Shown here: one piece after another, positions 3,001-6,000 of the stretch
Position numbering within the stretch: the stretch's first letter is position 1
Layout of the letters: each line of letters opens with the position of its first letter
From: Escherichia coli
GTDB taxonomy: Bacteria; Pseudomonadota; Gammaproteobacteria; Enterobacterales; Enterobacteriaceae
NCBI RefSeq assembly: GCF_003334305.1
Contig: NZ_QOWS01000019.1
Strand: one strand, 5' to 3'
Length of the DNA: 64,000 nucleotides
Position numbers: made by a program

Positions 3001-6000
3001 TTTTAACTACCGATATAACCCCGTCATCGACATGATAATGCGTCTGAGAAATGAGAAGAAATTAGGTGAACTGCATTTCTTCTCAGCAGAATTTAATAAA
3101 AATTCTGCACTGACCCGCCATCACCTGACCTGGCGAGACTCCGCACAACAGAGCAAAAGCAGCGGTGCTCTGGGCGATCTATCCTGTCATCTGCTTGATT
3201 TATTTTGTTTTATAGGGGAAAGCCCGGTAGTGGTTCATGGGATCAAAACGGTAAAGGGGACACGTGGGTACAAAATCAGATGGTCAGGTTGAAGTGGATG
3301 ATAACGGCTATGTAATGGGCAGTTCAGAAAAGGGAGCTTATTTCAGAGTTCATGCCAGTAAATCGGAAACAGATCATAATTTGGGACTGCATATACAGCT
3401 TGTATTTGAAAATGGTGAAATCAGATATTCAACCCACCATGAAAATCGCCTGCTCCTGATTCTATTTAATGATACGAATACGGAAACAATTGGCTTCGAC
3501 GCTCTGAAACGCTTGCCTGATCCACCACGGGAGCTTCCATTCTGGTCTGATTCGTTTATTCATCTTCATGACGACTGGTGTGCTCTTATTAAATATGGTC
3601 ACTCGTCTCCTAAGCTGGCGGACCTGTCATCCGGCCTTCATATACAGGAAATAATTGAGGCATTCTGATATGGATACCATTCTTTTAACCGGGCTGTTTG
3701 CTGCATTTTTCACAACGTTTGCGTTCGCTCCCCAGAGCATAAAAACTATCAGGACACGCAATACCGAAGGTATCTCCGTTGTTATGTATATCATGTTCCT
3801 GACAGGTGTAATCTCATGGATAGCGTATGGCATTATGCGATCTGATTTTGCCGTACTGATCGCCAATATTGTCACACTGTTTCTGGCTGCACCAGTGCTT
3901 GTAATAACACTTATCAACCGCAGGAAAAAACACGTATGAATATTGCAATCATCGGCGCGGGTCCTGCCGGCATCATTTCTGCCCGTAATGCGATTAAAGC
4001 AGGTCACTCCGTGGTTCTGTTTGAGAAGAATACCCGAATTGGGGGGATCTGGAACCCCTGGAGTGGTGGCGCTTACCGTAATGCCTGTATGCAGAACTCT
4101 CGTTATACATTTCATTATACTGGCTTTCCCCCTGGCGATATCGATGAACGAAGTTGGATGCAAATGTCAGATCGTGTGCGCCTGTTAGGGCGCGGCTGGT
4201 AAGAGAGCCTTATAGGCGCATTTGAAAAACCTCCGGCTATGCCGGAGGATATTTATTTCATAATATTCTGAGCAGTCTTGCCGGGTTTCCTGCATAAATG
4301 CCTTTGTTCTCAATCGGTTTTACCACAACTGAACCCGCACCAATAACAGCTCCGCTGCATATATACGGAGACAGAATAATGGCTCCACTGCCAACAGTAA
4401 CCGAATCCCCCAGGGTAATGCTGATCCAGTTATCCGGTGACGGATCTGGTGCTCCTGAACGAAACAGATCGTTGGCGAACGTCACGTTATGACCAATGAA
4501 GCAGTTCTCCCCCAGTGTTACGTTCTCACAAATAAACGTGTGCGACTGTATCCGGCTTCCACTACCAATGACACAGCCTTTCTGTATCTCAACGAAGGGG
4601 CCGACAAACACGTTGTCCCTGAGTTCACATTCATAAATGTTGACCGGTTTGACAATACGGACATTGGTCCCATAAATCACATCCCGGACAGCACATTCCA
4701 TAAATTTCATACTCACACGTCCTTTAAATACAGATGACACTTGCCGGAATTATACAGCCCAGATTCACTTGCTATGTTTCAGAATAGCTTATAAGCCGCA
4801 CTTTTACCGATACTCAGCAACAAATCAGGTCTGGATCCACTTCAGCCGGAAACCGGATCTGCGCGGCGGGGAACGGGCATACAATATGATAATTAAGCAA
4901 CTTATATAAAACCATATCTGATATTATTAATAATAAATAACACACAAATCATGCGGGATATGATTTTTATTTGTCAGAACATTATCAGATGGAGCGTGCA
5001 GGATGGATGAAGAAAGGGTGTTTTCACTCAGCTATGAACAACTGACCCGGTTTGCGGAAAAACGCATCCGGGAATGCAATCTGGACAGCCAGGGCGTAAC
5101 TTATCTCTGCGAGTCAGCCAAAGCCGGAGCTGTGCTGATCTTCTGGCATGAACTGGCCATAAATGGCTATGCCTCAATGAATGCCATAAAGAGACAGGAG
5201 ATCATTGACGCCGACCATCAGCGCCTCAGAAAGCTCATCTGGCCGGAGGATGACTGGAAATGACTCAGAGCCGCCGACCGTCGCCACTGCAGCGAAGAAT
5301 GCTGATTGTGCTGGCTGCCCTTGATGAAAAACGGCCAGGACCCGTGCTGACGCGGGACATAGAACGGGTGCTGGAGCGAAGCGGGGAAGCCCCAGTCTAC
5401 GGGCCAAACCTGCGCGCCTCCTGCCGTCGTCTGGAGGATGCCGGCTGGCTGCGTACCCTGCGCGCTCCGAACCTGCAGCTGGCAGTGGAGCTGACGGACG
5501 CCGGCCGGGCCGTGGCACAGCCTCTGCTGCTGGCAGAACAGGACCGCCTCCGGGCAGAACAGCGTGCGGCAGAAGTCGTCGTACTGCCGCTGGTCCCGGC
5601 AGCAGGTCTGCCCGCAGATGGCACTTCTGCCACTGATCTGGCGGTGCAGCTGAACGGCATAACGTATCAGGCCTGCCGTGGGGATTTTGTGGTGCATCTC
5701 GACGGCAGCACCTGTCTGCAGTTATGGAATAAAGAAGGCAGGGTGGTACGCCGGGAGGGCGATCCGCTGGAAGTGGCGCAGTGGCTGCAGGCCTGTCACG
5801 ATGCAGGAATGGAGGTTCGCGTACAGATAAATGAAAGTGCCGCTCCGTAAGAACACGCCTGTGCACGGTTTACACATCATCCCATGGTGGCAGCCGGTTA
5901 ACTTTCCTGCGCCCCCAGTAGATAAACCACATTGCACATCCCCAGGAAATGCCCCATAAGCCCCCCGTCAGCACCGTGACCTGCCAGAACGGCATAAAGG

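Follow-up and report, generated by a model that had tools for sequence, protein, structure and literature searches.

What does a small, coupled gene pair beside the colicin Ia locus of an Escherichia coli plasmid do? The pair occupies positions 5003–5850 of a 64,000-nucleotide stretch of contig NZ_QOWS01000019.1 (assembly GCF_003334305.1; hereafter the window), and an original prediction had placed a GC-rich two-gene operon there, suggesting a regulator pair or an addiction-type module. By homology, the pair corresponds to ydfA and ydeA, named yet uncharacterized gene families of IncI/IncF plasmids. The reading that we put forward, which on present comparisons and structure models we hold to be roughly an even call, is that YdeA would be a dimeric autorepressor acting on conserved palindromes, that YdfA would be a variable modulator co-produced with it, and that the two form a cassette controlling variable cargo, none of which is present here.

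Identity of the gene pair

The coordinates, strand and lengths of both open reading frames (ORFs) were exactly as predicted, and ORF reading, homologues and structure models agree on them:

5003–5263, plus strand: ydfA, ATG start, 86 amino acids, isoelectric point (pI) 5.3
5260–5850, plus strand: ydeA, ATG start, 196 amino acids

The ydfA stop and the ydeA start are fused in the ATGA at 5260–5263, the overlap that had been claimed, and each gene has a ribosome-binding site at a suitable distance 5′ of its start (GGAG at 4991–4994 for ydfA; GGAGG at 5245–5249 for ydeA). Many ColV-type IncFIB/IncFIC plasmids from E. coli and Salmonella carry the surrounding 1 kb at 100% identity; their records, like RefSeq, label each of the two genes ‘hypothetical protein’. 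At 90–99% identity, UniRef entries carry the names ‘YdfA protein’ for the 86-residue product and ‘YdeA protein’ for the 196-residue product, and the YdfA and YdeA of IncI1 R64, of ColIb-P9 and of ColV-Ia pS88 (pS88109 and pS88108) are the same genes, 90–100% identical. The gene order listed for pS88 is cia, imm, ybaA, ydeA (pS88108), ydfA (pS88109), acetyltransferase; transcripts of ydfA and ydeA were found on that plasmid by quantitative reverse-transcription PCR (qRT-PCR), and ydfA was reportedly expressed less in broth depleted of iron (PMC3438092). Expression of the pair is thus documented on pS88.

Apart from the names, nothing links these plasmid genes to the chromosomal ydeA (a sugar exporter) and ydfA (a prophage gene) of E. 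coli. A 2026 genome-wide association study of IncK2 plasmids linked a plasmid ‘ydeA’ to chicken isolates and read it as the chromosomal L-arabinose major facilitator superfamily exporter (PMC12987596). Because of its plasmid context, that gene is probably the winged-helix YdeA described below, and the case a name collision in the literature; recognizing plasmid YdeA as a predicted winged-helix protein, not the chromosomal arabinose exporter, removes this naming trap.

Searches of Pfam, NCBIfam, PADLOC, PHROGs and PDB sequences with both proteins, with long-form YdeA (see below) and with a diverse YdfA profile returned no significant family match. All that they gave was a PHROG without annotation, matching the winged helix, and weak hits to AbiEi_4, PaaX and JetA; the Pfam scores of YdeA were weak for both AbiEi_4 (PF13338, residues 18–68, E = 0.057) and PaaX (E = 0.076). 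The statement that neither protein could be assigned to a family therefore stood for domain families but not for homology, which places them in the named YdfA and YdeA plasmid families. That the pair has no known function also held, as the homology check led only to these uncharacterized families and to none of characterized function.

Among the homologues, the ratio of non-synonymous to synonymous substitution rates (dN/dS) was low, 0.19–0.38 at a synonymous divergence (dS) of ~0.8–2.5, and for ydfA a dN/dS below 1 in all comparisons (0.26–0.78). Given hundreds of homologues, low dN/dS, confident AlphaFold2 models and the pS88 transcripts, both ORFs are confirmed as real genes under purifying selection. 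We take the long antisense ORFs within ydeA for the kind of by-product that GC-rich coding DNA commonly gives.

The GC content over 5200–5800 reaches 0.66, with flanks at 0.40–0.48. The coding DNA had been described as more GC-rich than its neighbours; this is so for ydeA (63.6%; 0.78 at first and 0.645 at third codon positions, GC3) but not for ydfA, which at 50.6% is level with the window mean of 51.5%. In most homologous copies, a GC-rich ydeA (63–71%, GC3 up to 0.82) stands beside a ydfA of 48–57%, and the GC step inside the operon appears to be an old, family-wide feature and not a sign of recent insertion here. A separate origin could thus be kept for ydeA only, and as an old event, but not as a recent insertion at the colicin Ia locus, because the ydfA–ydeA–ybaA–imm–colicin block is common to IncI colicin plasmids and because ydeA has a high GC content in most plasmid copies.

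YdeA carries a winged helix and an orphan C-terminal domain in structure models

The AlphaFold2 model of YdeA (mean predicted local distance difference test score (pLDDT) of 87) divides the protein into four parts, all encoded on the plus strand:

Residues 9–78 (nucleotides 5284–5493): winged helix
Residues 80–104 (nucleotides 5497–5571): long helix
Residues 105–125 (nucleotides 5572–5634): dispensable linker, modelled with low confidence
Residues 126–190 (nucleotides 5635–5829): orphan beta-rich C-terminal domain

Structure prediction bore out the winged-helix-like N-terminal region as a fold, a three-helix bundle (helices at 9–24 and 31–40, recognition helix at 48–60) followed by a beta-hairpin wing (64–78). 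No curated winged-helix family model was matched by YdeA (E of at least 0.057 in Pfam; none in NCBIfam). The recognition helix (YGPNLRASCRRL) is nearly invariant, with the form YGPNLRxxC in homologues, and mean pairwise identity is 83% in the winged helix, 62% in the C-terminal domain, 41% in the linker and 36% in the YdfA body. Common natural variants of 169 residues lack residues ~93–119. The C-terminal domain consists of five strands, a helix and a strand (127–190), and in AFDB50 its structural matches fell within the YdeA family only. We infer that YdeA is a dimeric winged-helix DNA-binding protein, in which the family-specific beta domain would give oligomerization or partner binding. In five loci (L010, L021, L029, L031 and L035), a long form of YdeA (~400–430 residues) has an additional helical C-terminal extension with no family match.

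A conserved palindrome array lies upstream of ydfA

A 17-bp palindrome, ATCATATCnGATATGAT, is repeated 5′ of ydfA at −129, −93 and −56 from the ATG, a spacing of 36–37 bp. The palindromes occupy the same three positions in six plasmid loci and in 16 of 17 genome loci spanning many genera, and the upstream regions still align among loci with YdfA merely ~30–60% identical. Conservation is higher in palindrome columns than in spacer columns (0.87 versus 0.78, p = 0.005). In the window, the array and its surroundings read as follows:

4883–4897, plus strand: extra half-site at the distal end of the array (AATATGATAATTAAG; consensus GATATGATAATTAAG), kept in seven of eight aligned upstream regions
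4911–4927, no strand: O2, operator-like palindrome ACCATATCTGATATTAT, two mismatches to ATCATATCnGATATGAT, −92 from the ydfA ATG
4937–4964, plus strand: predicted sigma-70 promoter, ATAACA–16–TATGAT, from a consensus scan only
4948–4964, no strand: O3, operator-like palindrome ATCATGCGGGATATGAT, three mismatches, −55 from the ydfA ATG, overlapping the −10

The predicted −10 hexamer falls within the right half of O3. The window copy lacks the ancestral O1 (−129) through a 36-bp deletion, and O2 and O3 are the sole matches to the palindrome in the 64 kb, where 0.21 would be expected. The extra half-site is absent only in L007, the upstream part of which is recombinant.

The palindrome is also found where ydfA is missing: ydeA homologues that lack ydfA and have the recognition helix carry it just 5′ (Yersinia L046, two mismatches; L047 and plasmid L017, four each), and none was found 5′ of L013 and L014, two distant homologues in which the recognition helix is changed. 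The palindrome thus appears to track ydeA, not ydfA. Of the two functions first suggested for the pair, the regulator gains support from the winged-helix fold and from conserved palindromes that sit on the predicted promoter and follow ydeA across genera.

The YdfA body is variable and exchanged between ydeA alleles

The AlphaFold2 model of YdfA is a plain three-helix bundle (helices at 11–24, 31–55 and 61–79, pLDDT 80–90 in the helices), and the protein has a net charge of about −3. It combines a near-invariant N-terminal FSLSY motif with a hypervariable body: the first 15 residues are 71% identical, and of the body only a few core positions are kept (W48, L51, D71 and L75). A ribbon–helix–helix fold was considered for its strand-like N-terminal motif; the model instead leaves residues 1–10 unstructured ahead of the bundle. 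YdfA matched no toxin or antitoxin family in Pfam, NCBIfam, PADLOC, PHROGs or PDB.

Across 23 loci, how similar two YdeA proteins are says little about their YdfA partners (Spearman 0.13 for the pairwise identities), and loci with YdeA 93–96% identical carry YdfA only 29–39% identical (for example, YdeA 96% versus YdfA 36%). Between L039 and L008, the DNA aligns across the regulatory region, ydeA and beyond, but not in the ydfA body. Alleles of ydfA have been exchanged between near-identical ydeA alleles in L008, L039, L041 and L042, and also in L021 compared with L010, L029 and L031; in the swapped alleles, DNA homology ends ~18 nucleotides into ydfA and restarts at the ydeA start. By these alignments, ydfA is a replaceable cassette between conserved flanks, for which the operator/5′ untranslated region and the ydeA 5′ end look like recombination anchors.

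The upstream edge of the cassette-conserved DNA in six of eight loci is an inverted repeat, AGATCCGG, a variable loop and CCGGATCT, followed by GCGCGGCGGGAAAC, at 4834–4860 of the window and at the matching position in L006, L008, L010, L020 and L022; it could mark a recombination or cassette boundary. An RNA structure formed by AGATCCGG and CCGGATCT was rejected, its folding being no better than that of shuffled sequence (z = −1.0), and an Rfam search gave no matches of note.

A model of autorepression with a variable partner

Autorepression by YdeA is the most economical reading because the operator array, its co-occurrence with ydeA and the conservation of the winged helix point to it together. 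The recognition helix YGPNLRASCRRL would bind the 17-bp palindromes ATCATATCnGATATGAT and, with the proximal site spanning the predicted −10, YdeA would repress its own operon. YdfA, made in a fixed ratio with YdeA via the ATGA overlap, may dock on YdeA by its FSLSY, W..LA and D..RL residues and so modulate DNA binding, with the replaceable YdfA body as a variable input. Placed at the head of an operon, the cassette would control changing cargo in other plasmids; the window copy has none, since the next gene, ybaA, is convergent.

Several observations weigh against this model. Since ydfA is exchanged between identical ydeA alleles, YdfA and YdeA may just as well not interact. Each half-site contains the −10-like TATGAT, and the array could in part be AT-rich promoter elements, not operators; taken singly, the four-mismatch sites of L047, L017 and L043 are marginal against a background of ~5%, and Edwardsiella L036 keeps the recognition helix, yet no palindrome was found upstream of it. 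The promoter is a consensus match only, and a different start site was predicted in another study (PMC12111858). On the IncI1, R64-like plasmid pUA1135, reverse-transcription PCR (RT-PCR) showed ydfA, ydeA, ibfA and a proQ-like gene to be one transcription unit, which speaks for the model, but ibfA alone conferred abortive infection, giving phage defence from its own promoter (PMC12111858); control of cargo by the cassette is thus only putative.

A more elaborate version, which we regard as doubtful, would make the pair a sensor switch: YdfA would be a diversifying sensor or decoy with a body that recognizes proteins of invading phages or rival plasmids, releasing YdeA from the triple operator or locking it there and so turning defence or accessory cargo on or off, and the YdeA C-terminal domain would be the docking surface for the FSLSY of YdfA. 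If true, this would be a new two-protein regulatory logic in ~40% of complete E. coli genomes. The genes themselves are already catalogued, and a DNA-binding autoregulator such as YdeA would be is a known type of protein; the new observations are the orphan C-terminal domain of YdeA, the orphan, swappable YdfA and the fixed triple operator. They supply a testable model with a defined 17-bp operator, a defined predicted DNA-binding protein and a variable partner, for what is among the commonest enterobacterial plasmid gene pairs without an assigned function, domain model or structure. Should the cassette control ibfA or the DpdC-like/nuclease cargo described below, it would regulate plasmid-borne phage defence on a wide scale.

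Alternative explanations

YdfA might instead be an effector directed at the host, a phage or a competing plasmid, for example in anti-defence or host manipulation, with YdeA as its repressor only. A hypervariable body swapped as a cassette between conserved flanks, as in an arms race, would suit such a role, as would a small, mildly acidic protein (pI 5.3), the occurrence of ydeA without ydfA and neighbourhoods rich in defence and toxin–antitoxin genes (Ppl, RES, PDC-S06, IbfA, ccdAB and vapBC). YdfA nevertheless resembles no known anti-defence protein, its dN/dS is below 1 throughout and its net charge is unlike that of a DNA mimic, and a YdeA partner would account at least equally well for the tight translational coupling and for the N-terminal motif being conserved; we consider the effector somewhat unlikely. 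A type II toxin–antitoxin system in reverse order, with YdfA as the toxin and YdeA as a DNA-binding antitoxin that neutralizes it via the C-terminal domain and represses the promoter, would explain two small genes with a 4-bp overlap, reported to be co-transcribed (PMC12111858), with palindromes on a promoter that would be autoregulated. The pair is also plasmid-borne, extremely common, mobile and often beside other toxin–antitoxin systems, and the winged helix has its weak AbiEi_4 antitoxin score (E = 0.057). The all-helical YdfA bundle, though, matched no toxin in the five databases searched, and the partners evolve uncoupled, unlike cognate pairs. Moreover, ydeA has no ydfA beside it in Yersinia and at other loci, and truncated remnants of ydeA are often seen. 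Intact ydeA is also commoner than intact ydfA (1969 versus 1714 E. coli records at ≥80% coverage, a comparison confounded by the faster divergence of ydfA). The addiction-type module of the original prediction thus gained no support, given the lack of a toxin-like fold or homology in YdfA, the uncoupled evolution and the occurrence of ydeA without ydfA, and the toxin–antitoxin reading is distinctly unlikely.

At this particular locus, the pair could be a functionless, partly decayed passenger of the colicin Ia block: it has no downstream cargo, one of three operators is deleted and the remaining two are imperfect, the adjacent ybaA has an internal deletion, the upstream genes look fragmented and a second, truncated ydeA is present on the same plasmids. 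Against such decay, which we find very unlikely, both ORFs are intact, identical in many plasmids, under purifying selection and transcribed in pS88, and the cargo-less ydfA–ydeA–ybaA layout recurs in IncI and IncF plasmids. A part in plasmid maintenance, in which YdeA would bind a centromere or iterons in the manner of TubR or ParR for partition, copy control or incompatibility, is highly improbable: no ParA, ParM or TubZ NTPase was coupled to the pair in any locus examined, the same plasmids have complete partition systems elsewhere, and the arrangement, three sites on a promoter, is that of a typical operator and not of a centromere.

Comparison with known systems

Like MarR/PadR/HxlR-type repressors, YdeA has a winged-helix fold, but it is a member of none of these families in Pfam or NCBIfam and differs from them by the extra beta-rich C-terminal domain, with structural relatives only in the YdeA family, by an obligate small upstream partner gene and by three evenly spaced operators. 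AbiEi autoregulates through inverted repeats. YdeA resembles it in having an N-terminal winged helix followed by a second domain and in occurring on plasmids and in defence islands, though the AbiEi_4 score is not significant (E = 0.057). The partner of YdeA is an 86-residue helical protein encoded upstream, not AbiEii, and no AbiEii nucleotidyltransferase gene was found next to the pair at any of the loci examined, the window included.

BrxR and CapW are likewise winged-helix regulators that head variable defence genes, much as relatives of YdfA–YdeA head ibfA/HEC-04 and DpdC-like/SNase operons; YdfA–YdeA differs in being a two-gene unit, without cargo in the window, and YdeA had no Pfam match to a WYL domain. 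With HigBA, MqsRA and HicAB the pair shares a small first gene overlapping a DNA-binding second gene, operators on the promoter and a plasmid-borne, highly mobile life; it differs in that YdfA lacks a toxin fold or homology, the genes evolve uncoupled and ydeA occurs alone.

Distribution of ydfA and ydeA

A tblastn search of PLSDB with YdeA matched at least 5000 of 72,556 plasmids, most of them conjugative and from Escherichia, Klebsiella, Salmonella, Enterobacter and others. Of 5426 complete E. coli genomes, 2105 had a match, which covered at least 80% of the query in 1648; plasmids accounted for 2839 of the matched places and chromosomes for 41. A scan of one genome per species, for which a narrower alignment was used as the broad alignment had no conserved stretch, found the pair in Enterobacterales only, in at least 13 genera; three extra matches, near-identical short contigs in Clostridia-type bins, are regarded as contamination. 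As YdeA has only 216 relatives among representatives at 50% identity, the family appears narrow but extremely successful. The gene directly 5′ of ydeA is ydfA in eight of eight plasmid loci and 18 of 24 genome loci; L043 has a very divergent ydfA copy, and ydeA homologues without ydfA exist, for example in Yersinia and other loci.

The 64-kb window held no second copy or paralogue of the pair. Outside it, ColV plasmids carry a truncated second ydeA (residues ~97–196, 83% identical) with a second ybaA:

CP082603.1, 122.4–123.4 kb (L005 14704–15527): second truncated ydeA and ybaA, beside a RelE/ParE pair, 5′ of cvaA

Two places per record are hence not two full copies, the second being this 3′ remnant of ydeA with ybaA. 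A place for the pair among the leading-region genes of F was considered and rejected: no copy lies near the transfer/leading region of the window, and the IncI pair sits in a variable region between replication and partition genes.

Neighbourhood and cargo

In the window, as in many E. coli and Salmonella plasmids, no same-strand gene lies 3′ of the pair, only a convergent ybaA:

5870–6127, minus strand: ybaA, a small DUF6404 membrane protein (PHROG 31022, E = 6.5e-24), 19 bp from the ydeA stop

Its linkage to the pair holds for plasmids of E. coli and Salmonella and not for other genera. The window copy encodes 85 residues, having lost 90 bp in frame from within the 115-residue gene of IncI/IncF plasmids (L020 and L024). 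In pS88, ybaA transcript levels increased along with those of cia in serum and urine, a change that was not significant (PMC3438092).

The IncI layout is ydfA–ydeA, a variable element and a proQ-like gene, where the variable element is ibfA (R64 type) or ybaA–imm–cib–yagA (colicin Ib plasmids). By this comparison, the ydfA–ydeA–ybaA–imm–colicin block of the window ColV-Ia plasmid appears to be of IncI-type ancestry, and the pair is therefore linked to colicin Ia. Elsewhere, the neighbours of the pair vary:

Downstream, same strand: ibfA (PADLOC HEC-04) and a ProQ/FinO gene, in R64-type elements
Downstream, same strand: a DUF6884 protein (PADLOC DpdC, E = 7e-41) and an SNase-type nuclease, after a YdeA of 400–430 residues, in several genera
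Downstream, same strand: a 164-residue ‘DNA-binding protein’, a membrane protein and Hha, in Klebsiella-type plasmids
Downstream, same strand: a coupled, uncharacterized 446-residue protein, in Yersinia
Upstream, divergent: PDC-S06 ATPase, Ppl, a RES-domain protein and ccdAB, in various loci

Long-form YdeA heads a translationally coupled operon with the DUF6884/DpdC and SNase/thermonuclease genes (L010 6001–8407, L021 5986–8371, L029, L031 and L035), which on its gene content is a candidate DNA-targeting system. In the chromosomal R64-type segment L025, a PDC-S06 ATPase gene (947 bits, 5606–7741, minus strand) diverges from the pair, and the operator-bearing intergenic region is common to both; beyond an IS5 insertion lie IbfA/HEC-04 and the ProQ/FinO gene (10408–11961, plus strand).

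On the other side of the window locus, 5′ of the acetyltransferase gene, short overlapping ORFs fill 2849–4202. Elsewhere these are annotated as dehydrogenase pieces, a SemiSWEET transporter (3655–3939) and an 88-residue ‘FAD-dependent oxidoreductase’, and the region looks like a fragmented sugar-modification cluster.

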